A stretch of DNA of 64,000 nt, taken from assembly GCA_038063915.1 (NCBI GenBank), contig JBBTUE010000004.1, positions 102,719 through 166,718 on the forward strand, given 5' to 3'. Position 1 is the first letter of the stretch; each line of letters begins with the position of its first letter. Under the pieces are notes generated by a model. That model was not told the DNA's origin and ran no database searches. It saw nothing but the letters and a program-made list of their open reading frames with translations. Position numbers and translations under genes: made by a program. Origin of the DNA: Patescibacteria group bacterium (GTDB lineage Bacteria; Patescibacteriota; Minisyncoccia; Phycocordibacterales; UBA9973). Below are positions 1 to 56,911 of the stretch, one piece after another.

Positions 1-64
1 AGCATGGTATTGCCTCCACCGATGACACCATTTTTCGCAACCGCAGCTATAATTGAAAGTATCA

Positions 65-913
65 TTATTTTATAATATCTAGACCAGTAATAGGTTCACT
101 AGGATTGAAATATGGAGCAAATGATTGATAAATATCGTCTACCAAAGACTCGTCTTTTTTTTCAGCCCTTTCAAAAATATTTTCGGGTAGGATTGGGAAT
201 ACGTTCGGATGCTCATTTGCCCTTTTAATTAGTTCCAACGCCCCCTCGTAGTGGTTATCATATATATGAGCGTTTGATATTGTGTGGGTATATATCCCAG
301 GTTTCACTCCAAGCTTCTGGGCGAGGGTACACATCAGAAGACTAAACCCAAAAGTATCAAATGGGCAACCTAGCATCATGTCGTTTGATCTTACTATGTT
401 GTGCATATGAAGACGCCCACCGATTATATTTACAGTGAATGCAAATGGGCATGGTGCATTCTTTTTGTAAGTAGCTTTTAGACCTTTGCCATAGAGTCCG
501 TCATCACCTGCATCCCAGGTTATAACCACCCCTTGCCTTGAATGGGGTTCTTCTTGTAGATGTTTTATAAGTTGACCGAGTTGGTCACGACCAAAATGAT
601 GTCTCCATCGGTACCCATATGCTGAAGTGATAGTGCCATCTTCCTCGATGAACTCGTCCCACATCTTTGTATATTTTCGCAGGAACTCCGTATCTTTATC
701 GCCGGTAATGAACCAGACTTGTTCAGCAATTGGAGATTTGATAGGATTTTTACGAAGAGTCAGAACAGGGAAGCCGTCCTTCTCAATGTCAGTTTGGAAA
801 GTTAGGCCAGGTAGTATCTTTATCTTATGGCCAGTACGCTCATTGAGCTCTTCGATACCGTCCTCCATTATTCTTTTTATTAGATTTTGATAGATTGTGT
901 CAAACGTCGTCAT
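65..913 (-). CDS. ThyA-family (thymidylate synthase fold) enzyme, predicted cytosine-specific: deoxycytidylate hydroxymethylase or dCMP methylase
   Basis: Aligns to E. coli ThyA without gaps from the catalytic Cys (APC, Cys163; codon 449-451) through R166/S167/D169 to Asn177. Here Asn177 is Asp194 (codon 356-358) in RSND...PFD, the T4 dCMP hydroxymethylase signature. ERTG, WDE, YGxxWR and SRxG motifs are present; R127 is Gln. Start taken at MTTFDTIYQ (cat at 911-913). Confidence 0.75.
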   Translation of the reverse strand: MTTFDTIYQNLIKRIMEDGIEELNERTGHKIKILPGLTFQTDIEKDGFPVLTLRKNPIKSPIAEQVWFITGDKDTEFLRKYTKMWDEFIEEDGTITSAYGYRWRHHFGRDQLGQLIKHLQEEPHSRQGVVITWDAGDDGLYGKGLKATYKKNAPCPFAFTVNIIGGRLHMHNIVRSNDMMLGCPFDTFGFSLLMCTLAQKLGVKPGIYTHTISNAHIYDNHYEGALELIKRANEHPNVFPILPENIFERAEKKDESLVDDIYQSFAPYFNPSEPITGLDIIK

Positions 914-943
914 GTAGTAGAGTATACAATAAAACATACAACC

Positions 944-1462
944 ATGGAAATAACTGCATCAAATTTAAAATATCCCTACTTGCCCAATGGGCGAGTTATA
1001 TTATATGTACCTATTGATAGTATATACATGAGCGCTGCCAAAGAAATAGCACTCACTTCTTATGATAGAGCTATGCCTACAGGAGCTGTCGCAGTGATAG
1101 AAGGTGATATCATAGCTAAAGCCAGTAATAAGCCACCACTCCGCAATAATTTTTTAGTTAATCTTCACAAGAAATACTGTATCCGTAGGATTTTTGGTAT
1201 TCCTTCTGGCCAAAAGTACTGGCTTTGTCCAGGATGTGCCGGAAGTGAAAATCACGCCGAATCTCGTGTAAGTACAGAATTAAAAAAGAAAGGTAATACT
1301 AAGCCCTTCGATCTGTATCTATGGGGGCATTGGTGGTGTTGTGAGCCATGCTGGAATGCTATGATTTCTGCAGGAGTCAAAGATGTCTACCTACTTGATA
1401 GGAGTGAAATTCTGTTCAATAATCTCAATAAAGATAATATAATAGGAAGACAATTTCAATAA
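944..1462 (+). CDS. deoxycytidylate (dCMP) deaminase family zinc enzyme
   Basis: HAE...PCxxC zinc/catalytic motifs (HAESRV, CCEPCWNAMISAGVKDVY); GAVAVIEGDIIAKASN core. Divergent from the ThyA-like gene with a 30-bp gap. Start chosen at internal ATG (MEITASN). Confidence 0.7.
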   Translation: MEITASNLKYPYLPNGRVILYVPIDSIYMSAAKEIALTSYDRAMPTGAVAVIEGDIIAKASNKPPLRNNFLVNLHKKYCIRRIFGIPSGQKYWLCPGCAGSENHAESRVSTELKKKGNTKPFDLYLWGHWWCCEPCWNAMISAGVKDVYLLDRSEILFNNLNKDNIIGRQFQ

Positions 1463-1465
1463 TAA

Positions 1466-1497
1466 AAAGCCGGCCCAAAGGGCCCGCTTTTTTGTTT
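1466..1497 (+). terminator. rho-independent terminator
   Basis: ggccc-aaa-gggcc hairpin followed by cgcttttttgttt. Confidence 0.5.
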
Positions 1498-1546
1498 ACC
1501 AGACTCGTGCTAAAATCAGGACATTACTCTTAACTATCAAAACTGC

Positions 1547-2725
1547 ATGAAGGACAAAGAAGTAGAAAAACTAATAAAAGCTGAAGAGAAGAGGCAGAAA
1601 AGCGTCATTAATCTTATCGCATCTGAAAATTATGTTTCCGACGATATTCTCAAAGCTCTCGGCTCAAAACTTACCAATAAGTATGCTGAAGGTTATCCAG
1701 GTCGCAGATACTATGGAGGCAACGAAATCATCGACAAAGTTGAGACACTTTGTATCGACCGTGCACTGAAGCTTTTTAAATTAAAGAAAGCCGATTGGCA
1801 TGTAAATGCTCAACTTCTCTCAGGTAGTCCGGCCAATTTTGCACTGTACTCTGCACTCGTACCACTAGGTGGAAAAATCATGGGAATGAAGCTCACAGCA
1901 GGTGGTCACCTTACTCATGGCCACCCACTTTCAATGACAGGTAAACTTTGGAAGCCAGTCCAATTTGAGCTTGACCCAAAAACTGAAATGATTGATTACA
2001 AGGCTCTTGAATCTATCGCTATGGTTGAACGTCCAGATATCATCGTCGCTGGATTTACTGCGTATCCAAGAATTGTTGATTTTAAAAAGTTTCGCGCGAT
2101 TGCAGATAAATGCCAGGCGCTCCTTCATGTAGACATGTCGCACTTTGCAGGGCTTATTGCAGGGGGAGTGTACCCATCTCCATTTCCATATGCAGATTCT
2201 GTTATGACGACTACTCACAAATCTCTTCGCGGTCCGAGGCAAGCGCTTCTTTTTGTGAAAAAGGATTCCCGAGAATTTGATAAGAAATTAGATAAGATGG
2301 TAATCCCCGGGCTATTTGGTGGACCACATGAGAACAATATCGCAGCTGTGGCTATTGCTCTAAAAGAGGCAGACACACCAGCGTTTAAAAAATATGCAAA
2401 GCAAGTCGTAAAAAATGCTCAGACCCTTGCAAATGAGCTTCAGAAATTAGGCTGGCATATTATATCGGGCGGTACAGACTCCCATCTTATACTTATGGAC
2501 ACTTGGATGAATGGAGTTGGTGTCTCAGGTTCTGATGCAAGTAAAAAACTTGAGAAAGCTGGAATAATTGTAAACATGAATACAATTCCAGGCGACCCTC
2601 GTTCTGTCATGGACCCCTCCGGTATTCGCCTTGGAACATGTGCTGAGACTACAATAGGAAAGAAGGAGAAGGATATGATAAAAATCGCAAGAAAGATTGA
2701 TAAAATTTTAAAAAGGAAGAAGTAG
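1547..2725 (+). CDS. glyA: serine hydroxymethyltransferase
   Basis: Full-length SHMT signature (ASENY, YAEGYPGRRYYGG, TTTHKSLRGPR PLP-lysine region). Confidence 0.95.
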   Translation: MKDKEVEKLIKAEEKRQKSVINLIASENYVSDDILKALGSKLTNKYAEGYPGRRYYGGNEIIDKVETLCIDRALKLFKLKKADWHVNAQLLSGSPANFALYSALVPLGGKIMGMKLTAGGHLTHGHPLSMTGKLWKPVQFELDPKTEMIDYKALESIAMVERPDIIVAGFTAYPRIVDFKKFRAIADKCQALLHVDMSHFAGLIAGGVYPSPFPYADSVMTTTHKSLRGPRQALLFVKKDSREFDKKLDKMVIPGLFGGPHENNIAAVAIALKEADTPAFKKYAKQVVKNAQTLANELQKLGWHIISGGTDSHLILMDTWMNGVGVSGSDASKKLEKAGIIVNMNTIPGDPRSVMDPSGIRLGTCAETTIGKKEKDMIKIARKIDKILKRKK

Positions 2726-2726
2726 A

Positions 2727-3188
2727 ATGCCTCATATTCACGAAAAAATTGATTTTACAGTAGAAGTATTTATTGTTCATAAAGACAAAGTTCTTCTTCG
2801 TATGCATGATAAATATCATTTATGGCTCTCTGTTGGTGGACATATAGAACTTGACGAAGATCCAGTCCAAGCTGCAATCAGAGAAGTAAAGGAAGAGGTA
2901 GGATTAGATATAAAAATTACAGGAGACGTTCCAGAATTTGATGATGGTGACTATACCTACCTGGCTACTCCCAAGTATATTGGTCGTCACAAAGTGAATG
3001 ATATTCATACCCATGTTGTTTTAGTTTATTTTGCCACATCCAATACTGATAAGGTGGTAGATTCAGAGAACGAACATGAGAAAACAGAAACGCGATGGGT
3101 CACAAAAGATGAACTTTCAAAAATGGATCTTCGTCCAAATATTCTCCACCTCGCTACTAAAGCTTTAGAAGAATTAGGAGAAAAATAA
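2727..3188 (+). CDS. NUDIX hydrolase
   Basis: Nudix box GGHIELDEDPVQAAIREVKEEVGL. Confidence 0.8.
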   Translation: MPHIHEKIDFTVEVFIVHKDKVLLRMHDKYHLWLSVGGHIELDEDPVQAAIREVKEEVGLDIKITGDVPEFDDGDYTYLATPKYIGRHKVNDIHTHVVLVYFATSNTDKVVDSENEHEKTETRWVTKDELSKMDLRPNILHLATKALEELGEK

Positions 3189-3189
3189 T

Positions 3190-3615
3190 ATGAGTATTGA
3201 AATTACAAAAGTTGGTATGGGAGTTGTAATTCTTAAAGAAGGGAAAATCCTTCTTGGTAAACGCAAGGGTTCTTTTGGTTCTGAAGAGTATGCATCACCC
3301 GGAGGTCATCTTGAATATATGGAATCATTTGAAAATGGCATTCGTAGGGAAGTACGAGAGGAATGTGGTATTGAGATAAAGAATATAAAATTCATTCATG
3401 TTGCAAACGAAGTTACATATGCACCAAAACATTATGTAAATGTTCAATTTCTTGCAGATTGGGAAAGCGGAGAACCTATAACTTTCGAGAGTGAAAAGAT
3501 TGGTGGTTGGAATTGGTATTCTTTTGATAGTCTTCCTGATAAAATTTTTGAACTAACTAGAAAGGGAATAGAGTCATACAAAACAGGTAGAAACTATTTT
3601 GATATAGAAAAATAA
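3190..3615 (+). CDS. NUDIX hydrolase
   Basis: Nudix box GGHLEYMESFENGIRREVREECGI. Confidence 0.8.
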   Translation: MSIEITKVGMGVVILKEGKILLGKRKGSFGSEEYASPGGHLEYMESFENGIRREVREECGIEIKNIKFIHVANEVTYAPKHYVNVQFLADWESGEPITFESEKIGGWNWYSFDSLPDKIFELTRKGIESYKTGRNYFDIEK

Positions 3616-3618
3616 TTT

Positions 3619-4314
3619 ATGAAAAAAGGCAAACTCATAGTCATAGATGGAACGGATGGATCTGGGAAGGCGACCCAAGTCGCTTTACTCACTACACGAC
3701 TGAAGAAGGAAGGATACACAGTCAAGAATGTAGATTTTCCTGAATACTATAAAAATTTTTTTGGGAAATTTATCGGTCACTGTCTTTCCGAGCAGTACTA
3801 TAACTTTGTCAAAGTGCACCCCAAGATTGCCTCAGTCCTTTATGCAGCGGACCGATTCCAATCAAAAGATGAGATAGAGGGTTGGCTTAAAAAGGGTTAT
3901 GTAGTGATTGCCAATCGTTATGTGAGTGCAAACCAAATCCATCAAGGTGGTAAAATTAAGAATGCGAAAAAAAGAGAGGCGTTTATAAAATGGCTCGACG
4001 AGATGGAGTATCAAGTTTTTAAAATCCCTAGACCAAATACTGTATTTTATTTAAGTTTACCACTACCTATAATTTTAAAATTAATAAAAGAACGCAATGG
4101 CAAAATGAAACGTGCTTACCTAAAGAAGCATAAAGATGTACATGAGAGTGATAAACAATTCTTGATAAATTCTCGCAATAGCGCTCTTTGGCTTGCTAAG
4201 ACACAAAAATATTACAGAAAGATTGATTGCGCAATAGGCAACTCTATCCGCACTCGCGACGATATACACCAAGAGATTTACGAGAAAGTAAAAGTGTTAC
4301 TAAAAAACAAATAA
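3619..4314 (+). CDS. tmk: thymidylate kinase family (dTMP / dNMP kinase)
   Basis: P-loop IVIDGTDGSGKATQ, RY lid region, Tmk length. Confidence 0.8.
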   Translation: MKKGKLIVIDGTDGSGKATQVALLTTRLKKEGYTVKNVDFPEYYKNFFGKFIGHCLSEQYYNFVKVHPKIASVLYAADRFQSKDEIEGWLKKGYVVIANRYVSANQIHQGGKIKNAKKREAFIKWLDEMEYQVFKIPRPNTVFYLSLPLPIILKLIKERNGKMKRAYLKKHKDVHESDKQFLINSRNSALWLAKTQKYYRKIDCAIGNSIRTRDDIHQEIYEKVKVLLKNK

Positions 4315-4347
4315 AGATACCGTTGCGGTATCTTTAAATATTTTTTT
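4315..4347. terminator. bidirectional hairpin terminator
   Basis: gataccg-ttg-cggtatc followed by tttaaatattttttt; lies between tmk stop and the minus-strand ORF stop. Confidence 0.55.
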
Positions 4348-4360
4348 ACCAACGGCCTTA

Positions 4361-4732
4361 TTATGACTGTCTCAGTGTGCATCTTTTACAGTAGTGAGAT
4401 AGATGAACTTTCTTGGTCTCAGAAGACTGAGACCCTATCACTGGAATCGAAACTGATACAGGTAGTTTGTCAGTATCTTTGTATCCAAAGTGTTTCTTTG
4501 CCGAGTCACTTCGACAATCTCCTCTACCAGGGAATTTTTTCCCTCTGTAAAAACATAAGGAGCAGTCTCTTGGTTCTGAAGTCCCTTGTATAAATTGAGA
4601 GATAAATGGAAGACCATCCAGTGTGTTGGTTTCGGGGTCGTAGCCCTTTTTGGCTTTGACGGTGTTTTCGTTTGTCATAGAACTACTTTTGTTTTGAAAT
4701 ATTAAATTATCATTAATTGCTCCCTTTGTCAA
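4361..4732 (-). CDS. small hypothetical protein (possible start at internal MTNENTV)
   Basis: Only clean ORF in the 450-bp tmk-dut spacer. Opposite strand to all neighbours, terminator on its 3' side, no recognisable motif. Confidence 0.25.
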   Translation of the reverse strand: MTKGAINDNLIFQNKSSSMTNENTVKAKKGYDPETNTLDGLPFISQFIQGTSEPRDCSLCFYRGKKFPGRGDCRSDSAKKHFGYKDTDKLPVSVSIPVIGSQSSETKKVHLSHYCKRCTLRQS

Positions 4733-4770
4733 ATATAATAACGGGTTTTAATTATGTTATATTTATAATT

Positions 4771-5193
4771 ATGCGGATTAAAGTTAAAAAATTAAAGGAG
4801 GATGCGAAGTTGCCGACATATGCACATCCAGGAGATGTAGGCATGGATATGTATGCTATGGAAACGGTCACAATTCCTCCGATGGGGCACTACCGTTTCT
4901 GGCATGGTTTTGCTCTAGAATTTCCGGTAGGTTACGGTGGTATAATAATGGACAAAGGTAGTATGTCAAAAGCTGGACTTATACATATGGGTGGAGTCTA
5001 TGATGCAGGGTATAGAGGAGAATACAATACACATCTAGTAAATCTTGGCACAGAGCCCTATACAGTAGAGGAGGGAGACAAAGTTTCTCAGCTCGTCATA
5101 ATGCCAGTAGAAATAGTTGAATTTGAAGTTACGGATACACTTAGTGAGTCATCACGTGGTGAGGGAATGTTTGGAAGTACAGGGAAGAAATGA
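4771..5193 (+). CDS. dut: dUTP diphosphatase
   Basis: dUTPase motifs (AHPGDVGMD, DAGYRGE, C-terminal RGEGMFGSTG). The ORF-track start at 4717 is TTG; the ATG at 4771 fits the family N-terminus. Confidence 0.85.
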   Translation: MRIKVKKLKEDAKLPTYAHPGDVGMDMYAMETVTIPPMGHYRFWHGFALEFPVGYGGIIMDKGSMSKAGLIHMGGVYDAGYRGEYNTHLVNLGTEPYTVEEGDKVSQLVIMPVEIVEFEVTDTLSESSRGEGMFGSTGKK

Positions 5194-6917
5194 TAAAAGA
5201 AAAAATTATACAAATTATAGACGATGCACTAAAAAATCTTGGCATTAAAGCCGAAGGTATTATTCTTGAGCATCCTGCAGATATTGAAATGGGCGATTAT
5301 TCCACCAATGTCGCAATGGCTTATGCTAAGCAGTTAGGAACAAACCCTCGAGAGTTGGCAGAAAAAATTAAAATAGAACTAGAAAAAAACTTACCTAAAG
5401 AAATTGAAAAAGTTGAAGTCGCAGGTGCAGGGTTTATAAATTTTTACTTATCTCGGGAATTTTTCACAAATTCAACTAAGGAAATACTAAAACAAAAAGA
5501 AAACTGGGGGAAAAATGAAATACTATCTAGCAAGAAGGTCATGGTGGAGTATACACAGCCGAACCCGTTCAAGCCATTCCACATAGGCCATCTTATGAGT
5601 AATGCTATAGGTGAATCTATCTCTCGTATTGTTGAATTCTCCGGGGCAAAAACTGTAAGAGCAAATTACCAAGGGGATGTAGGTCCTCATGTAGCCAAAG
5701 CTATATACGGCATCATGTGGTTATCTGATAACGCGTCGAATGAAAAGCTACAAACAACTGACCCAGCTGGAGAATTGGCAGAGTGGATCGGTGAGTGCTA
5801 CACCAAAGGTGCACAAGCTTACGAAGAAAATGAAAGCATTAAAATTCAAATCGATGAAATAAATAAAAAGATATATGATAAGAGTGATAACGAGATAAAT
5901 AAAATATATGACTGGGGACGCGAAGTAACGTTGTGTGCGTTTGAAGAAATATACCAGATTCTAGGTACAAAGTTTAACTATTATTTTTTTGAGAGTGAAA
6001 TGGCGCCAATAGGTGAGAAGATTGTACGAGAGAATATTGGAGGAGTATTCACCGAGAGTGAGGGCGCAATTGTATTCCATGCCGAGAATTACGACCCAAA
6101 GCTCCATACTAGAGTCTTTATCACATCTCTAGGCATTCCTTTATATGAGACAAAAGAAGTGGGGCTGACTGTGACTAAATTCGAGAAAGAAAATCCTGAT
6201 ATCTCTATTATCACTACCGCCATTGAGCAAGGAGAATATATGAAAGTTGTACAAAAGGCAGTATCGCTAATTCACCCTGATTACGAATCACGTATGAAGC
6301 ATGTTACTCACGGTATGATGCGACTGACTTCTGGGAAAATGTCATCTCGCAAAGGTAATGTAGTGACAGGCGAGTCGTTATTGCGAGACTCTATGGATGT
6401 AGTGCGTGAGAAAGTCGCGAGTAGAGATTTATCAGCTGAAGAAAAAGACACTATAGCTAAAGTTGTCGGAGTAGCAGCTCTAAAGTACTCCATACTTCGT
6501 TCATCTCTTGGCTCAGATATCGTTTATGATTTTGAGAAGTCTATTTCATTTGAAGGGGATTCGGGTCCATACTTGCAATACACTGCAGTGCGTGCGAATT
6601 CTATTATTAAAAAAAGTGAAGCAGAGGGTATACACTTAGTATATAAAAATATACCAACCGACATTACAATACTTGAGAAAAATCTTTACAAATTTCCTGA
6701 AATCGTCGCCCGCTCATACTTACTCCTTGAACCCCATCATATAGCGACATATCTGACCGAGCTTTCCAGTGCGTTCAATACTTTTTATGCGAATACGCAG
6801 ATAGTAAATAAAAGTGACCCATACGCGCCTTACCGCGTCGCCCTTGTTGAAGCATTTCACCAGACTATGAAGAACGGTCTCTATCTCCTCGGCATAAAAA
6901 CCCCAGATAAGATGTAA
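5190..6917 (+). CDS. argS: arginyl-tRNA synthetase
   Basis: Class I HIGH (PFHIGHLMSNAIG), KMSSRKG, C-terminal DALR-type domain ending in M; ATGA overlap with dut. Confidence 0.9.
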   Translation: MIKEKIIQIIDDALKNLGIKAEGIILEHPADIEMGDYSTNVAMAYAKQLGTNPRELAEKIKIELEKNLPKEIEKVEVAGAGFINFYLSREFFTNSTKEILKQKENWGKNEILSSKKVMVEYTQPNPFKPFHIGHLMSNAIGESISRIVEFSGAKTVRANYQGDVGPHVAKAIYGIMWLSDNASNEKLQTTDPAGELAEWIGECYTKGAQAYEENESIKIQIDEINKKIYDKSDNEINKIYDWGREVTLCAFEEIYQILGTKFNYYFFESEMAPIGEKIVRENIGGVFTESEGAIVFHAENYDPKLHTRVFITSLGIPLYETKEVGLTVTKFEKENPDISIITTAIEQGEYMKVVQKAVSLIHPDYESRMKHVTHGMMRLTSGKMSSRKGNVVTGESLLRDSMDVVREKVASRDLSAEEKDTIAKVVGVAALKYSILRSSLGSDIVYDFEKSISFEGDSGPYLQYTAVRANSIIKKSEAEGIHLVYKNIPTDITILEKNLYKFPEIVARSYLLLEPHHIATYLTELSSAFNTFYANTQIVNKSDPYAPYRVALVEAFHQTMKNGLYLLGIKTPDKM

Positions 6918-6949
6918 AAGCATCAAATTTATGTTAAAATCAGCCAATA

Positions 6950-9900
6950 ATGGCTGGGAAAGAAGACAATAATAAATCGGAAGTAGCGCTCCGCGAGGAG
7001 CGGGTTTTGGAGTTTTGGCAGGAGAATAATACTTTTCAAAAAACTTTAGAAAAAGATTCACCAAAAGGCGAGTTCGTTTTTTACGAAGGCCCTCCGACTG
7101 CCAATGGTAAACCAGGAATTCATCACCTCGAAGCCAGAGCTTTCAAGGATGCAATTCCAAGATATAAAACCATGCGTGGATATCATGTACGTCGTAAAGG
7201 TGGCTGGGATACTCATGGGCTACCCGTAGAACTCCAAGTGGAAAAGAAGCTTGAATTAAACTCCAAGAAAGCTATTGAAGAGTATGGTATAGCAGAGTTC
7301 AATAAACAGTGCAAGGAAAGTGTCTGGGAATATTTAGATATTTGGAATAAATTTACCAAGCGTATAGGTTACTGGGTGGACCAAGAGAATCCATATGTTA
7401 CTTATCATAATGATTATATAGAATCTGTCTGGAATGTTCTTGCCCAAGTAGAAGATAGGAAACTTCTATATAAAGATTACAAAGTAGTGCCATGGTGCCC
7501 GCGCTGTGGTACAGCCCTTTCTTCCCACGAACTTGCGCAAGGATACCAAGATGATAAAGATTTGTCGGTAACTGCAAAGTTTAAAATAAAAGGCGTTGTT
7601 GATGGTTATTTTTTGGCTTGGACTACAACTCCATGGACACTAGCAGGCAATGTTGCTCTTGCGGTTGGAAGTGAGATTATCTATGTTGAGGCAAAAGTTG
7701 GGCCGGAGGTTTTAGTTTTAGCAAAGGATAGGCTTTCTATAATTACTGATCCATATGAAATAGTGGCAGAACACAAAGGTAGTGAAATGGTTGGTATGGA
7801 ATACGAGCCACTTTATCCATATCTGTCTACTCTTGATGTGGGAGATGAAAAATTAAAAAATGCATATAAAGTTTATCCGGCAGATTTCGTAAATACTACA
7901 GATGGTACTGGTATTGTGCATACAGCAGTCATGTATGGTCAGGATGACTTTGAGCTCGGTACAAAAATTGGTCTGCCAAAGTTCCACACAGTCGATGATA
8001 GTGGTCACTTTGTAAAAGGCACTGGTTTCTTGGAAGGAAGATTTGTTAAGGATGAAGAAGTCGCAGTTGATATTATCAAAGATCTGGCACACAGAGGCCT
8101 TTTATTTAAGAAAGAAAAATATGAACACTCATATCCTCACTGTTGGCGCTGTAAAACTGCGCTCATATACTATGCTCGTGATTCTTGGTATATCAGAATG
8201 TCTGATCCGAGTGTGAAAGATAAACTAATAGCTGAAAATAAAGAAATAAATTGGGAGCCACCACATATTCGCGATGGGCGCTTTGGAGAGTGGCTCAAAG
8301 ATATAAAAGATTGGGCAATATCTCGTGAGAGATATTGGGGGACGCCGCTACCTATATGGCAGAAAGCCGACGGTAGTAATATTGTAGTAGATTCGATTGA
8401 TACACTTAAAAAATACATCAAAAAAAGTGGTAACAGTTACTTCATCATGCGTCATGGTGGGACAGAAGGTAATTTAGAGGAGCTCGTGAGCTATAAACAT
8501 CAAGAGACTGACAATTTAACTGAAAATGGTAAAGAGCAAGTACGCGTATCTGCAGATAAATTAAAAGATCATAATATAGATATAGTAATATATTCTCCTT
8601 TTACTCGCACTACCGAGACTGCTACGATTGTAAAAGAAGTGCTTGGTCTTGGTAGTGAGCAGGTAATGCCCGACGCACGACTAATAGAAATAAACCCAGG
8701 GATATATGATGGTAAGAATTGGAGTGAATATCACGAGCATTTATATAATATGGAGCGTGGATGGTTTGTAAGGAAAATTCCTGAAGGAGAATCCCTACAA
8801 GATGTCACCGAAAGGTCAGGAGCAGTACTTTATGATCTCGAGGCTAAGTATTCTGGTAAGAATATTCTAATTATTACTCATGGTGGCCCTGCATGGGCTA
8901 TGTATGTCGCTTCTGGTATTTATGAGAAGCGTAATACTGAATATAAAAAAGCAGACACCCATGTATTTGTGAAAGAATTCAAACAATTTGGTAATGCTGA
9001 AGTAAGAGAACTACCATTCGTACCACTACCCCATGATAAACACAATATTTTAGATTTACATAAGCCATATATAGATGAAGTAGAGCTTTTTGACGAAGAA
9101 AGCCGCCCAATGACTCGAGTCAAAGAAGTCATGGATGTATGGTTCGACTCTGGGGCCATGCCCTTCGCGCAAGATCACTATCCGTTCGAAAATAAAGAAT
9201 GGGTGGATACTAAAGGATTCCCCGCCGACTATATTTGTGAAGCGATAGATCAGACTCGTGGATGGTTCTATACTTTGCACGCGATAGGCGTACTCACAGG
9301 TAGAGGCAAAGCCTTTAAAAATGTCATCTGCCTTGGACATATCTTAGATAAAGATGGGAAGAAAATGTCCAAGTCTGTCGGCAACGTCGTCGACCCATGG
9401 GAAATGATGGATAAATACGGAGTAGATACATTACGCCTATGGATGTATAGCGTGAATCAGCCCGGTGAATCAAAGAACTTTGACGAGAAGACAGTTTCCG
9501 AGCTCAACAACAAAGTATTTAATTTATTTTATAATGTACTCGCATTCTACGAACTATATAGAGACAAATCCATTGAAGATAGGGAATATAAAAAGTCAGA
9601 TAATATTCTTGATCAATGGATAATTGCCCGGCTAAACAAGCTCGTCTTAGATATGACGAATAGTATGGATAATTATAAACTTTTAGAACCAGTAAGAGGT
9701 ATACGCGAATTTGTCGATGAGCTTTCTACATGGTATGTCCGTCGCTCACGTGAGCGGATTAAGGACGGGGATGTAGATGTGAAGCAGACTCTGTACTTCG
9801 TATTAAAAACGTTTTCAAAAATTTTAGCTCCATTTGCACCGTTTGCAGCTGAAGACATATGGCAGAAGTTAAAAAATACTTCTGATGCAGAGAGTGTGCA

Positions 9901-10414
9901 CCTAGCAGAATGGCCAGAAGGAGGAAAAGTTAACGAGGATTTGATTTCTGAAATGCAAATTGTACGACACGTAGTGACTCTTGGACTTGAAGCGAGACAA
10001 AAAGCAAATATCAAAGTTCGTCAGCCACTAAGTGAACTAAAAGTCAAGAGCTATCAACTAAAAGATGAGTATATAGAGATTATTAAAGATGAGCTAAATA
10101 TAAAAGCTGTCGTCTACGATGACTCTATTGAGAATCCAGTCGAACTCGATTCTCATATAACTCTAGATCTAAAAAAAGAAGGTCAATATCGTGAACTTGT
10201 TCGTGCTATTCAAGATATGCGCAAGAAGGAGGGGTTAAACCCAAATGATGTCATTGTTCTTACCATTGCTACTAATACCGAAGGTCAAGAAATCGTAAAT
10301 AAATGGAAAAGTGAACTCATGAAAATAGCTGGAGCTAAAGAGGTTAATATTGCCGATAATCAAGGCACTGAAGTTAAGATTGACGAATTAACATTCCTAG
10401 TCAGTTTTTCATAG
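6950..10414 (+). CDS. ileS: isoleucyl-tRNA synthetase (type 2, Thermus/eukaryote-like) with inserted histidine-phosphatase domain
   Basis: PPTANGKPGIHH, GWDTHGLPVE, ISRERYWGTPLPIW, HKPYIDEVEL, DVWFDSGAMPFAQ, KMSKSVGN. Collinear with T. thermophilus IleRS except for a ~200-aa insert. Confidence 0.9.
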   Translation: MAGKEDNNKSEVALREERVLEFWQENNTFQKTLEKDSPKGEFVFYEGPPTANGKPGIHHLEARAFKDAIPRYKTMRGYHVRRKGGWDTHGLPVELQVEKKLELNSKKAIEEYGIAEFNKQCKESVWEYLDIWNKFTKRIGYWVDQENPYVTYHNDYIESVWNVLAQVEDRKLLYKDYKVVPWCPRCGTALSSHELAQGYQDDKDLSVTAKFKIKGVVDGYFLAWTTTPWTLAGNVALAVGSEIIYVEAKVGPEVLVLAKDRLSIITDPYEIVAEHKGSEMVGMEYEPLYPYLSTLDVGDEKLKNAYKVYPADFVNTTDGTGIVHTAVMYGQDDFELGTKIGLPKFHTVDDSGHFVKGTGFLEGRFVKDEEVAVDIIKDLAHRGLLFKKEKYEHSYPHCWRCKTALIYYARDSWYIRMSDPSVKDKLIAENKEINWEPPHIRDGRFGEWLKDIKDWAISRERYWGTPLPIWQKADGSNIVVDSIDTLKKYIKKSGNSYFIMRHGGTEGNLEELVSYKHQETDNLTENGKEQVRVSADKLKDHNIDIVIYSPFTRTTETATIVKEVLGLGSEQVMPDARLIEINPGIYDGKNWSEYHEHLYNMERGWFVRKIPEGESLQDVTERSGAVLYDLEAKYSGKNILIITHGGPAWAMYVASGIYEKRNTEYKKADTHVFVKEFKQFGNAEVRELPFVPLPHDKHNILDLHKPYIDEVELFDEESRPMTRVKEVMDVWFDSGAMPFAQDHYPFENKEWVDTKGFPADYICEAIDQTRGWFYTLHAIGVLTGRGKAFKNVICLGHILDKDGKKMSKSVGNVVDPWEMMDKYGVDTLRLWMYSVNQPGESKNFDEKTVSELNNKVFNLFYNVLAFYELYRDKSIEDREYKKSDNILDQWIIARLNKLVLDMTNSMDNYKLLEPVRGIREFVDELSTWYVRRSRERIKDGDVDVKQTLYFVLKTFSKILAPFAPFAAEDIWQKLKNTSDAESVHLAEWPEGGKVNEDLISEMQIVRHVVTLGLEARQKANIKVRQPLSELKVKSYQLKDEYIEIIKDELNIKAVVYDDSIENPVELDSHITLDLKKEGQYRELVRAIQDMRKKEGLNPNDVIVLTIATNTEGQEIVNKWKSELMKIAGAKEVNIADNQGTEVKIDELTFLVSFS
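8426..9049 (+). other. in-frame histidine phosphatase (phosphoglycerate-mutase-like) domain inserted in IleS
   Basis: RHG motif (FIMRHGGTEGN), LTENGKEQV, DIVIYSPFTRTTETA, FPEGES-like KIPEGESLQDV, ILIITHGGPAWAM. Sits between IleS segments ...PLPIWQKADGSNIVVDSIDTLKKY and LDLHKPYIDEVEL, which are ~8 aa apart in T. thermophilus IleRS. Confidence 0.7.
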
Positions 10415-10415
10415 T

Positions 10416-10856
10416 ATGGCTTCAATAGAACAAGTTGCATACGGTATAGTAGTAGCTATCAAAGAAGATGAATGGAAATTCTTGATACTTCTACAAGATG
10501 AGACATTTGTAAATTGGAGTTTTCCAAAAGGTAAAACTGAAAAAGGCGAGACTGTACCGCTTGATATAGCTATGCGTGAATTGGGCGAAGAGACTGGTAT
10601 CACTGTTATCGATATACTAGACTGTCCACTTATGGAGGAGGAATATCGGTATGAAAAACGAGGTGATACTTACCACCGCACTAATAAATATTTCTTGGGT
10701 GTCGTCAAAGATAAATCTGTAAAGATACAAGAAGGTGAAATTATAGAATACAAATGGGCTACATATAAAGAAGCCTCAGAAACCTTTGTTTTTAAGAAGG
10801 AATCTCGTGTAGAAATCCTTCAACAAGCACAAGAATATCTAAATATGTTAAAATAG
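10416..10856 (+). CDS. NUDIX hydrolase (Ap4A-hydrolase-like)
   Basis: Nudix box WSFPKGKTEKGETVPLDIAMRELGEETGI. Confidence 0.8.
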   Translation: MASIEQVAYGIVVAIKEDEWKFLILLQDETFVNWSFPKGKTEKGETVPLDIAMRELGEETGITVIDILDCPLMEEEYRYEKRGDTYHRTNKYFLGVVKDKSVKIQEGEIIEYKWATYKEASETFVFKKESRVEILQQAQEYLNMLK

Positions 10857-10860
10857 AAGA

Positions 10861-11502
10861 ATGAAGATCAAAAAACTAGGGCATTGTTGTTTAGTTATAG
10901 AGGTAAATAGCAAAAGGATAATGACAGATCCAGGTTCTTATTCCACTCTCCAAGTTGAAGAGAAAAATATAGATATTATACTTATTACTCATGAACACCC
11001 CGACCACCTGCATGTGGATTCTTTGAAAGTTATTCTAGAGAATAATAAAGATGTAAAAGTAATTACAAATAGCGCAGTAGGAAAAATTCTTACTGAAGCT
11101 GGGATTGCATATGAATTGTTGGAAGAAGGAGGAAGGGGAGAATTTGAGGGGATATTATTTGAAGGATACGGAGATCATCATGCAGAGGTTTATGAAGAAT
11201 TTGGCCAAGTTCAAAATACTGGCTACTTTATAGACAATACACTTTTTTATCCTGGAGATGCATTTACTAATCCACATAAACAAGTAGAAATACTTGCTTT
11301 ACCTGTTGCCGGGCCATGGATGAAAATAAAAAATGCCATACATTATGCTCTTGAGTTAAAACCAAAAGTTTGTTTTCCTGTTCATGACGGGATGATAAAA
11401 GAAGATAGACCAGGGCCTATTTATAATCTGCCTAAAAATATTCTGACTCAAAGTGGGATTGAGTTTAAAGTGTTAGAAGTAAATAAAGAAGAAGAGTTAT
11501 AA
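10861..11502 (+). CDS. metallo-beta-lactamase-fold hydrolase
   Basis: ITHEHPDH (HxHxDH) motif. Confidence 0.75.
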   Translation: MKIKKLGHCCLVIEVNSKRIMTDPGSYSTLQVEEKNIDIILITHEHPDHLHVDSLKVILENNKDVKVITNSAVGKILTEAGIAYELLEEGGRGEFEGILFEGYGDHHAEVYEEFGQVQNTGYFIDNTLFYPGDAFTNPHKQVEILALPVAGPWMKIKNAIHYALELKPKVCFPVHDGMIKEDRPGPIYNLPKNILTQSGIEFKVLEVNKEEEL

Positions 11503-12086
11503 TGCACCACATATATCACACCCATGGGTTTATATTAGGTTCGCGCAATACTGGCGAGGCGAATAAAATGCTCACTGTTTATACTCGTGAGATGGGGCTC
11601 GTGCGAGTGGCATCTCAAGGTATACGATTCCATAAATCCAAACTACGTTTTGCTCTCCAAGATTATTCATACATAAATATGGATTTGGTTAGAGGTCGCG
11701 AGATTTGGCGTGTTACTTCAGCTACTAGTATTAATTCATTTCCATATGCTCGTTCGACTAAAGAGTCACTTTTGCTGATTGCACGGGTAAGCAAGCTTAT
11801 CGAGAGGCTCTGTGATGGGGAAGAAGCGAACGATAGAATATTTGATGATTTTATTCAGGCATTATATTTGCTCGACGATGTAAATTTATCTATTGATGTG
11901 CGTGAAGCACTAGAGCTTCATCTCGTGCTTCGCATTATGAGCACACTCGGATATATAGGGGAGTCTAGCTCTGTCCGTGAATATTTGTCATTGCCATTTG
12001 ATAAAGTTGAAACGAGTAGGTTTTTGAAGGAAAAGAAATCAATTATAGCGCATATAAATAAGGCTATAAATGAAAGCCAGCTATAA
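11502..12086 (+). CDS. recO: DNA repair protein RecO (short form)
   Basis: N-terminal OB region THGFILGSRNTGEANKMLTVYTREMGLVRVASQGIRFHKSK matches the RecO pattern GIVLRxRDYGExDR...AKGARR; 194 aa. Confidence 0.55.
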   Translation: MHHIYHTHGFILGSRNTGEANKMLTVYTREMGLVRVASQGIRFHKSKLRFALQDYSYINMDLVRGREIWRVTSATSINSFPYARSTKESLLLIARVSKLIERLCDGEEANDRIFDDFIQALYLLDDVNLSIDVREALELHLVLRIMSTLGYIGESSSVREYLSLPFDKVETSRFLKEKKSIIAHINKAINESQL

Positions 12087-56433: not shown

Positions 56434-56504
56434 TTGGGGATCGTCTAATGGTAGGACAGTGGCCTTTGAAGCCATTAATTGGGGTTCGAATCCCTGTCCC
56501 CAAG
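56434..56504 (+). tRNA. tRNA-Gln (anticodon TTG)
   Basis: ttgggga-tc-gtc taatggtag gac a gtggc ctttgaa gccat taat tgggg ttcgaat ccctg tccccaa g; 3-bp D-stem as in bacterial tRNA-Gln. Confidence 0.8.
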
Positions 56505-56506
56505 CA

Positions 56507-56911
56507 ATGGAAACTAAAACTAGAATTGGTGGAATAATTATTCAAGATGGAAAACTTCTTATGTTATTAGGCAAGGGTTATAAAGAACTGTGGACCCCAG
56601 GAGGCAAAATTGATGAAGGTGAAAGTGATGAAGAGTGCCTAAGGAGGGAACTTCAAGAGGAGTTGGGTGTTTCGCTTGTAGAAGCAAAATTTTTCAAAGA
56701 ATATATCGGTCCATCTTTTTATAATCCAGATAAGCACATAACTAAACAGAGAATATATATTATAAAAATAGAAGGCACCATTACTCCTGCAATGGAAATT
56801 GAAAGTTATATATGGTTCACCAAAAAAGATTTTGTAAATAAAAAATACCCCATGATTACTATGACAGAGAAAGAATTAATCCCAGATGTCATAAAGGCTG
56901 GAATTTGGTAA
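56507..56911 (+). CDS. NUDIX hydrolase
   Basis: Nudix box GGKIDEGESDEECLRRELQEELGV. The ORF-track start at 56459 overlaps the tRNA; the ATG at 56507 (METKTRIGG) lies 2 nt past the tRNA 3' end. Confidence 0.75.
   Translation: METKTRIGGIIIQDGKLLMLLGKGYKELWTPGGKIDEGESDEECLRRELQEELGVSLVEAKFFKEYIGPSFYNPDKHITKQRIYIIKIEGTITPAMEIESYIWFTKKDFVNKKYPMITMTEKELIPDVIKAGIW

Follow-up and report, generated by a model that had tools for sequence, protein, structure and literature searches.

To our knowledge, the textbook synthesis of thymidylate (deoxythymidine monophosphate, dTMP) in cells, by ThyA or ThyX, always starts from deoxyuridine monophosphate (dUMP), and ThyA-family enzymes that carry aspartate at the position of Escherichia coli Asn177 (Asp-type enzymes) have so far been regarded as phage DNA-modification tools. 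A 64,000-nucleotide stretch of a Patescibacteria genome (NCBI GenBank assembly GCA_038063915.1, contig JBBTUE010000004.1, positions 102,719 to 166,718 of the forward strand; the whole stretch is called the window below) raises the question of what an enzyme of this type may be doing in a cell: at its left end lies a thyA-like gene whose product has Asp at this position. The window has a GC content of ~38% and is a bacterial chromosome segment with aminoacyl-tRNA synthetase genes, 4 tRNA genes, a topoisomerase gene and other housekeeping genes, in agreement with the cellular location that a preliminary description of this DNA had assigned to the thyA-like gene and its neighbors. We propose, with a probability of about 0.6, that this gene encodes a deoxycytidine monophosphate (dCMP) C5-methyltransferase of the kind known from phage Xp12 and that, with its conserved partners, it would form a cellular thymidylate route via 5-methyl-dCMP and not via dUMP.

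Active site of the ThyA-like protein

The thyA-like open reading frame (ORF; 65..937, minus strand) matches the Pfam family PF00303 (Thymidylat_synt) with 183.5 bits (E 5.5e-54, cut-off 24.3), the match covering residues 15-247 of the protein and profile positions 2-232 of 266. A sequence comparison with the Protein Data Bank (PDB) gave 124 sequences at E <=0.001, and thymidylate synthases (TS) made up 59 among the 60 matches listed. In HMMER alignments to three solved TS the motif GCPFD of the protein faces G[VL]PFN, and two MAFFT alignments concur. The catalytic Cys163 and Asp194 (numbering of the 290-aa ORF) are each shifted by 17 relative to E. coli ThyA, so that no gaps lie between them. 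The preliminary description had placed Asp opposite Asn177, had located the two codons (Table 1) with a gapless stretch between them and had read R127 as Gln, and these alignments uphold all three statements. They revealed no genuine Asn at the position that contacts O4/N3 of the pyrimidine, Asp standing opposite Asn177 in each of the three solved enzymes.

In E. coli numbering, which is used from here on, the protein keeps R21, E58, W80, Y94, R126, C146, R166, S167, D169, H207 and Y209, the last two of which bind the 3'-OH of the deoxyribose in TS, and carries the changes W83F, R127Q, L143N, H147P, Q165V and N177D. Within the catalytic and phosphate-binding set, R127 is the sole altered residue. 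In canonical TS, Asn177 hydrogen-bonds uracil O4/N3, and H147 and Q165 belong to the same network; this network is without a match in the ThyA-like protein, which has D177, P147 and V165 instead.

The start of the gene is placed at ATG 913 (M9 of the ORF, MTTFD...), which is backed by the N-termini of homologues and by their lengths of 277-282 aa. With this start, 30 bp separate the gene from the divergent deaminase gene, the arrangement and distance given in the preliminary description. Start calls vary, in that public assemblies give a protein of 267 aa (start 868) while the homologues and the E. coli ThyA alignment back 282 aa; the mechanically listed ORFs of 290 aa and 191 aa would overlap (regions 887-943, 913-937).

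Kinship with the cytosine-type branch of the ThyA family

Residue 177 sets the preference for uracil (Asn) or cytosine (Asp), and residues 177 and 147 were the most discriminating positions in metaviromes studied by MetaGPA (PMC8670742). According to literature cited in that paper, the substitutions N177D and N229D shift TS from dUMP to dCMP and turn it into a dCMP methylase. A bulky hydrophobic residue at position 143 goes with a methyl product and Asp/Glu with a hydroxymethyl product, as in T4 gp42 and MilA, and D169N marks the 5-hydroxy-dCMP synthases of the RB69 gp48 type (PMC13326640). At positions 83/143/147/165/169/177 the ThyA-like protein reads F N P V D D, as against F N P L D D in the Xp12 enzyme, V D T M D D in T4 gp42 and W L H Q D N in E. 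coli ThyA. It thus combines D177 with a non-acidic residue 143 (N143), without the Asp/Glu of T4-type hydroxymethylases, through which water reaches the exocyclic methylene intermediate, and keeps D169 (RSND) in place of the Asn of 5-hydroxy-dCMP synthases; genes for dihydrofolate reductase (DHFR) and a deaminase are linked to it, as in the Xp12 type.

Overall similarity points the same way. By BLASTP the nearest characterized relative is the Xp12 enzyme (180 bits, 37% identity), as compared with 111 bits and 29% identity for E. coli ThyA and 34 bits and 22% identity over 156 residues for T4 gp42, the sequence used being 100% identical to the T4 record. The best solved TS reaches 128.6 bits. 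Among the 4371 phage records that contain a homologue, the Xp12-type phages Mallos, Elanor, PaMx74 and Xp12 give the best matches, and further top matches include some Achromobacter, Rhodobacter, Variovorax, Stenotrophomonas and other Pseudomonas phages. Of the eight NCBIfam TS models matched, the protein passes TIGR03284 narrowly (116.6 bits vs a cut-off of 108.35) and misses the other seven, most of them widely, including all five PRK01827 equivalogs (148 vs 327, 138 vs 327, 124 vs 325, 117 vs 405 and 76 vs 427). The sequence evidence supports placing it, as the preliminary description had already done, with the cytosine-type (Asp177) enzymes of the ThyA family. Within this branch the Xp12 enzyme, which served as positive control, and 5 of 7 metavirome Asp177 homologues make 5-methyl-dC (bioRxiv 10.1101/2024.12.05.627091).

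Spread of the Asp177 signature

Asp177 is found in 118 of 120 close homologues (67-100% identity) and in all 79 orthologues recovered from a sample of 80 species-level Patescibacteria loci, whose record titles include Nomurabacteria, Paceibacteria, Kaiserbacteria, Taylorbacteria, Uhrbacteria, Falkowbacteria and Moraniibacteriota. The 79 orthologues read F83-[H/Q]127-N143-P147-[V/I/L]165-D169-D177, the exceptions being three with Leu147 and one partial sequence. Asp177 is neither a chance nor a private substitution. A search of 1.84 billion representative proteins, whose nearest 150 matches are representatives of 50%-identity clusters, gave 122 of the Asp177 type among these best 150, with canonical W83/L143/H147/Q165/N177 proteins beginning at ~135 bits. 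Among the aligned Asp177 representatives F83 is present in nearly all and N143 and P147 in most (N143 in 100 of 113).

In a rough neighbor-joining tree, 18 Patescibacteria sequences form an exclusive clade within the Asp-type sequences, and the Asn-type sequences form one compact clade. In this phylogenetic placement, which the preliminary description had called for, Xp12 is placed elsewhere among the Asp-type sequences and the Patescibacteria clade does not lie inside its subgroup. Asp177 ThyA domains also occur in fusions, one with a dCMP_cyt_deam_1 domain (P0139, 433 aa, L084 8001-9302), on a phage-like contig beside a Dcd-like gene and a ribonucleotide reductase gene, and one with a PRA-PH/MazG domain (P0194, 424 aa). 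An N-terminal extension in P0124, considered as a further deaminase fusion, was rejected: it has no similarity to the deaminase of the window and looks like a mis-called high-GC extension.

Conserved neighborhood

The ATG of folA, encoding DHFR, overlaps the stop codon of the thyA-like gene as TAATG at the left edge of the window. Genes beyond this edge were read in locus L082 (GCA_964363515.1), which is 100% identical to window positions 1-10868 and contains the full 170-aa DHFR_1 protein followed by the MazG-like gene; the folA orthologue of locus L002 scores 183 bits on PF00186. The counts of neighboring genes (Table 1) separate a conserved core from its surroundings: the core is made up of the deaminase, the Asp-type ThyA, DHFR and the MazG-like protein, and the glyA/NUDIX/tmk/dut block is a local extended version. 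The preliminary description had tied the thyA-like gene to the deaminase-family gene, and this tie is supported by the 76 loci that hold both genes, in most of which the pair is divergent. It had identified glyA, two NUDIX genes, tmk and dut correctly, as judged by Pfam and NCBIfam, but its view of the NUDIX genes as parts of the module finds no support in their low counts.

Table 1. Features of the thyA-like locus. Positions are those of the window; the last column counts, among the 80 loci, those with the gene within 10 kb of the thyA-like gene.
Feature	Position	Strand	Evidence or remark	Loci of 80
folA (dihydrofolate reductase), first 21 codons	1..65	-	remainder past left window edge; ATG 65-63, minus strand; MILSIIAAVAKNGVIGGGNTM	67 by tblastn, 72 by clustering; directly downstream in ~69
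ThyA-family enzyme, Asp177 (cytosine) type, predicted dCMP C5-methyltransferase (5-methyl-dCMP synthase)	65..913	-	282 aa from conserved start	
Asp194 codon GAT (E. coli ThyA Asn177 position)	356..358	-	290-aa numbering	
Catalytic Cys163 codon TGC (E. coli ThyA Cys146)	449..451	-	290-aa numbering; invariant in aligned representatives	
Divergent intergenic region, thyA-like gene / deaminase gene	914..943	.	30 bp, read from sequence	
Divergent dCMP-deaminase-family zinc deaminase	944..1462	+	172 aa (NCBI AAB477_02340); PF00383 30.7 bits, cut-off 25	76, within few kb; remaining 4 cut by contig ends
glyA, serine hydroxymethyltransferase	1547..2725	+	PF00464 495 bits; NF000586 493.7 vs cut-off 335	33
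NUDIX hydrolase 1	2727..3188	+	PF00293 61 bits; no NCBIfam equivalog cut-off reached	4
NUDIX hydrolase 2, weakly conserved neighbor	3190..3615	+	PF00293 66 bits; no curated cut-off reached	12
tmk, thymidylate kinase	3619..4314	+	PF02223 62.5 bits	23
dut, dUTP diphosphatase	4771..5193	+	140 aa; TIGR00576 107.2 vs cut-off 102.55; gene call in L082	18
MazG-like pyrophosphatase			109 aa, convergent after folA	44

The MazG-like protein was considered as an orthologue of DCTPP1 and rejected, the similarity being non-significant (E 0.3-0.5). Other loci vary the theme. Locus L002, whose ThyA-like protein is 89% identical, has two MazG-like genes, one between both NUDIX genes and one after folA (6343-7684, 11425-11754), and a PaaX_M/Cas2-like ORF of 160 aa inserted in the operon. 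In a second group of loci (L074 9929-13499 and 22 others among L057-L080) the module is collinear and different in composition, with an Asp-type ThyA, a RibD_C-type DHFR-like reductase, a Dcd-like protein, a deaminase fused to a Nuc_deoxyrib_tr-like domain and a phage-type deoxynucleoside monophosphate (dNMP) kinase (phrog_139, E 3.6e-20).

The divergent deaminase

The deaminase has ~365 homologues, and the sources that give names place them in Patescibacteria; database labels are mostly hypothetical protein or deoxycytidylate deaminase. No NCBIfam match at E <=0.01 links it to a curated dCMP deaminase family, and a sequence search of the PDB found nothing significant (best E 0.09 and 0.51). 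The catalytic zinc site, H104-A-E106 with C133-x-x-C136 (C133-E-P-C136 in the window), is invariant in 54 homologues, as are W127-G-H-W-W131 just before the Cys pair and the residues H75, C79, C95 and C98, which may form a second zinc site. An AlphaFold2 (AF2) model with a predicted local distance difference test (pLDDT) score of 85 found dCMP deaminases at the top of a Foldseek search of the PDB, namely those of cyanophage S-TIM5, Streptococcus mutans, human and T4 (4p9e, 5c2o, 2w4l, 1vq2), at E 7e-5 to 2e-4 and with modest template-modeling scores (0.44-0.59). Orthology with the Xp12 deaminase was considered and rejected: BLAST gives E 0.2, and hhalign gives E 1e-4 over the catalytic core, a relation at the level of the superfamily. 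That the enzyme would convert a 5-methylcytosine deoxynucleotide to a thymine nucleotide is a prediction from its genomic context.

In viral sequences the Patescibacteria-type (WGHWW) deaminase was seen in only 3 of ~2.9 million IMG/VR contigs, one of which also carries an Asp-type ThyA. One phage contig (L086 4519-6710) has dut, the deaminase, an adenine-methyltransferase-like gene and an Asp-type ThyA gene in a row; on another (L087 4989-5483), the deaminase gene has genes for a ParB-methyltransferase and an S-adenosylmethionine synthetase nearby, and there is no ThyA gene within 5 kb of it.

A proposed route to thymidylate via 5-methyl-dCMP

The order of methylation before deamination, one of the routes entertained in the preliminary description, is the reading that best fits the evidence. 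In this route, dCMP would come from salvage, or from dCTP through the MazG-like or NUDIX pyrophosphatases, which might alternatively clear 5-methyl-dCTP. The ThyA-like enzyme would then convert dCMP and 5,10-methylene-tetrahydrofolate to 5-methyl-dCMP and dihydrofolate in a reductive methylation; the translationally coupled DHFR would reduce dihydrofolate to tetrahydrofolate (THF), from which serine hydroxymethyltransferase (SHMT, the glyA product) would regenerate methylene-THF. The deaminase would turn the 5-methylcytosine nucleotide into the thymine nucleotide, most likely at the level of 5-methyl-dCMP to dTMP, with the triphosphate as the alternative, whereupon Tmk would phosphorylate dTMP to dTDP and Dut would hold dUTP low.

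The methylation step is suggested by the signature and by kinship to assayed enzymes, and a methyl product is favored because N143 is as in Xp12, D169 is kept and folA overlaps the stop codon. The translational coupling of DHFR is consistent with the reductive transfer of a methyl group, in which dihydrofolate is released; for a hydroxymethylase, DHFR would be dispensable. Phage-linked deaminases turn 5-methyl-dC nucleotides into dT nucleotides (bioRxiv 10.1101/2024.12.05.627091), and for the Patescibacteria enzyme the deamination step is suggested by context; its phosphorylation level and the roles of the pyrophosphatases are presumptive. Compared with Mycobacterium tuberculosis TMPK (1G3U), the Tmk of the window keeps D73, R74 and N100, and its DRY motif reads NRY. 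In the mycobacterial enzyme these residues contact thymine O4/N3, so that their retention fits a dTMP kinase and, in this genome, deamination before phosphorylation. Given its exclusive Patescibacteria clade, the module looks like a housekeeping function of streamlined genomes. The preliminary description had proposed a search for thyX or a canonical thyA, and tblastn with E. coli ThyA and Thermotoga maritima ThyX revealed no second ThyA or ThyX in 1.26 Mb comprising the window and the 80 flanks; this agrees with a housekeeping function as far as the locus flanks go and says little about whole genomes.

Several points weigh against this route. Its support in this clade consists of a sequence signature and gene context. 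Its net stoichiometry equals that of the classical conversion of dCMP to dUMP to dTMP, so that the operon would look alike if the enzyme still used dUMP. Two genes that belong to the dUMP route are present, dut in the operon and a Dcd-like gene that immediately follows the gene pair at 23 of the 80 loci; the L078 copy of the latter passes the dCTP deaminase equivalog cut-off. The window deaminase is, as described above, no orthologue of the phage deaminases, and its preference for 5-methylcytosine is itself a guess. Finally, the characterized phage deaminase mSCD-B5 takes triphosphates and not monophosphates as its substrates (bioRxiv 10.1101/2024.12.05.627091).

Alternative explanations

Several of these points would be met if the enzyme methylated dUMP despite Asp177 and its neighbor were a divergent but ordinary dCMP deaminase supplying dUMP. 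In its favor are an operon that holds the full textbook set of deaminase, TS, DHFR, SHMT, Tmk and Dut, the Dcd-like genes, the narrow passing of TIGR03284 and the name thymidylate synthase, under which all databases annotate the protein. We nevertheless consider it unlikely, for the five positions around O4/N3 and C5 of the pyrimidine are jointly shifted to the Xp12 pattern across the 79 orthologues, apart from the exceptions noted above, the remaining NCBIfam models are missed, the similarity to Xp12 exceeds that to any solved TS, and the N177D and N229D substitutions are the very ones that, in the literature cited in PMC8670742, make a dCMP methylase of TS.

A second alternative retains the enzymology of the 5-methyl-dCMP route and differs in the fate of the product: part of the 5-methyl-dCMP would proceed to 5-methyl-dCTP and into DNA, 5-methylcytosine (5mC) replacing much or all of the cytosine, while the deaminase would siphon part of the pool into dT nucleotides and the pyrophosphatases would remove dCTP. 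The conserved set of Asp-type TS, deaminase, DHFR and NTP pyrophosphatase equals that of Xp12 and PaMx74, two phages with full 5mC substitution in their DNA; pyrophosphatases of the MazG-like and NUDIX kinds occur, and the operons of the L074 type include the phage-type dNMP kinase. Yet the operon kinase in the window is of the ordinary Tmk type, with Arg74 and Asn100, which contact thymine, both retained, and the window shows no kinase dedicated to 5-methyl-dCMP. Nor are the NUDIX genes conserved, and a literature search gave no report of globally 5mC-substituted Patescibacteria DNA, which is a weak negative. A regular-expression search for C5-DNA-methyltransferase motifs, whose presence would have spoken against fully 5mC-substituted DNA, found none in the 1.26 Mb of window and flanks, a result that is uninformative on 5mC in DNA. 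This alternative, too, appears improbable, and the broader proposition that chromosomal DNA in members of much of the Patescibacteria is assembled from a pool of 5-methyl-dCTP, which would also yield thymidylate by deamination, is more doubtful still.

That the protein is instead a dCMP (or CMP) hydroxymethylase or hydroxylase making the precursor of a hypermodified base or a nucleoside antibiotic, as the hydroxymethyl alternative of the preliminary description would have it in part, is very improbable, for although Asp177 is common to T4 gp42, MilA and the 5-hydroxy-dCMP synthases (PMC13326640), residue 143 is Asn and not Asp/Glu, D169 is not Asn, the similarity to T4 gp42 is slight, DHFR is translationally coupled, H207 and Y209 are kept, and there are no glycosyltransferase or antibiotic-pathway genes nearby.

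Other features of the window

The gap between tmk and dut (4315-4770) is unusually long, at ~450 nt, and a terminator-like hairpin directly follows tmk. The gap contains no significant Rfam family, and its folding z-score is only -2.0. A gene finder called a 123-aa ORF on the opposite strand (4361-4732) that has no Pfam match; the tmk-dut gap of L002, at ~260 bp, is too short for this ORF. Further downstream, ileS (6950-10414, plus strand, 1154 aa) has a histidine-phosphatase domain (His_Phos_1, phosphoglycerate-mutase-like) inserted inside the synthetase, with the motif FIMRHGGTEGN in the translation and the Pfam order tRNA-synt_1 / His_Phos_1 / tRNA-synt_1 in the identical L082 gene. Directly after ileS lies a NUDIX-like ORF (10416-10856, plus strand), called NUDIX in L082, and a second one (56459-56911, plus strand), NUDIX-like by eye, overlaps the tRNA-Gln region; counting both, the NUDIX total would be four within 64 kb of a very small genome.

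Implications

The preliminary description had called the system unusual for a bacterium. As to the cellular setting this holds: a literature search gave no description of a cellular or candidate phyla radiation (CPR) Asp-type thymidylate synthase, nor of a bacterial 5-methyl-dCMP route. As to the pathway it does not, in that the enzyme type and the logic of methylation followed by deamination are already known from Xp12-type phages (bioRxiv 10.1101/2024.12.05.627091). If the 5-methyl-dCMP route is true, dTMP is made in reverse order, with cytosine methylation first and deamination second, by a bacterial lineage that is both major and very abundant. Thousands of entries in this clade, named thymidylate synthase where they are named, would then need re-annotation, and so would the picture of metabolism drawn in models of these ultrasmall symbionts have to change. 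The route would also suggest that the phage toolkit for base modification and the nucleotide metabolism of cells are linked by evolution, with transfer possible in either direction, and would define a new deaminase family with a possible preference for 5-methylcytosine, a property now of interest in methylome sequencing. In addition, it raises the question of whether these bacteria hold unusual amounts of 5-methylcytosine in their DNA. Should the doubtful 5-methyl-dCTP pool be real, they would be the first cellular organisms with a pre-replicative, genome-wide base substitution.

Comparison with known systems

T4 gp42 (EC 2.1.2.8) shares with the ThyA-like protein the Asp at 177 and the catalytic Cys, Glu and Tyr, and differs from it in having Asp143 and Thr147 where the latter has Asn143 and Pro147. 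The T4 dCMP hydroxymethylase releases THF and has no need of DHFR; in the genome of the window a DHFR gene is translationally coupled. Like mSCD-B5 and related 5mC-selective deaminases from phage metagenomes, the Patescibacteria deaminase is encoded by a dCMP-deaminase-family gene beside an Asp177 ThyA homologue; mSCD-B5 needs triphosphate or single-stranded DNA substrates, and with the Xp12 deaminase taken as a proxy for orthology, the match is at the superfamily level.

With canonical ThyA (EC 2.1.1.45) the protein has in common the fold family, the residues R21, E58, Y94, R126, R166, S167, D169, H207 and Y209 with the catalytic Cys146, and the association with DHFR and SHMT, and the folate chemistry is probably the same, a reductive methyl transfer giving dihydrofolate. 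It differs in the substitutions at residues 83, 127, 143, 147, 165 and 177, and its predicted substrate is dCMP, not dUMP.

The closest counterpart is the system of Xp12 and its relatives PaMx74, Mallos and Elanor. The Patescibacteria module differs from it in lying on a cellular chromosome, in at least 80 species and as an exclusive clade, in having a deaminase that belongs to a separate, Patescibacteria-specific branch of the superfamily, with an extra Cys/His cluster and WGHWW, and in its linkage to SHMT, Tmk and Dut. The ThyA homologues belong to the same family and share F83, N143, P147, a hydrophobic residue 165, D169 and D177, and their neighboring functions are in both cases a deaminase, DHFR and an NTP pyrophosphatase, as seen in the gene rows of Xp12 (thyA homologue, deaminase, DHFR-like) and PaMx74 (NTP pyrophosphohydrolase, thyA, cd, frd).

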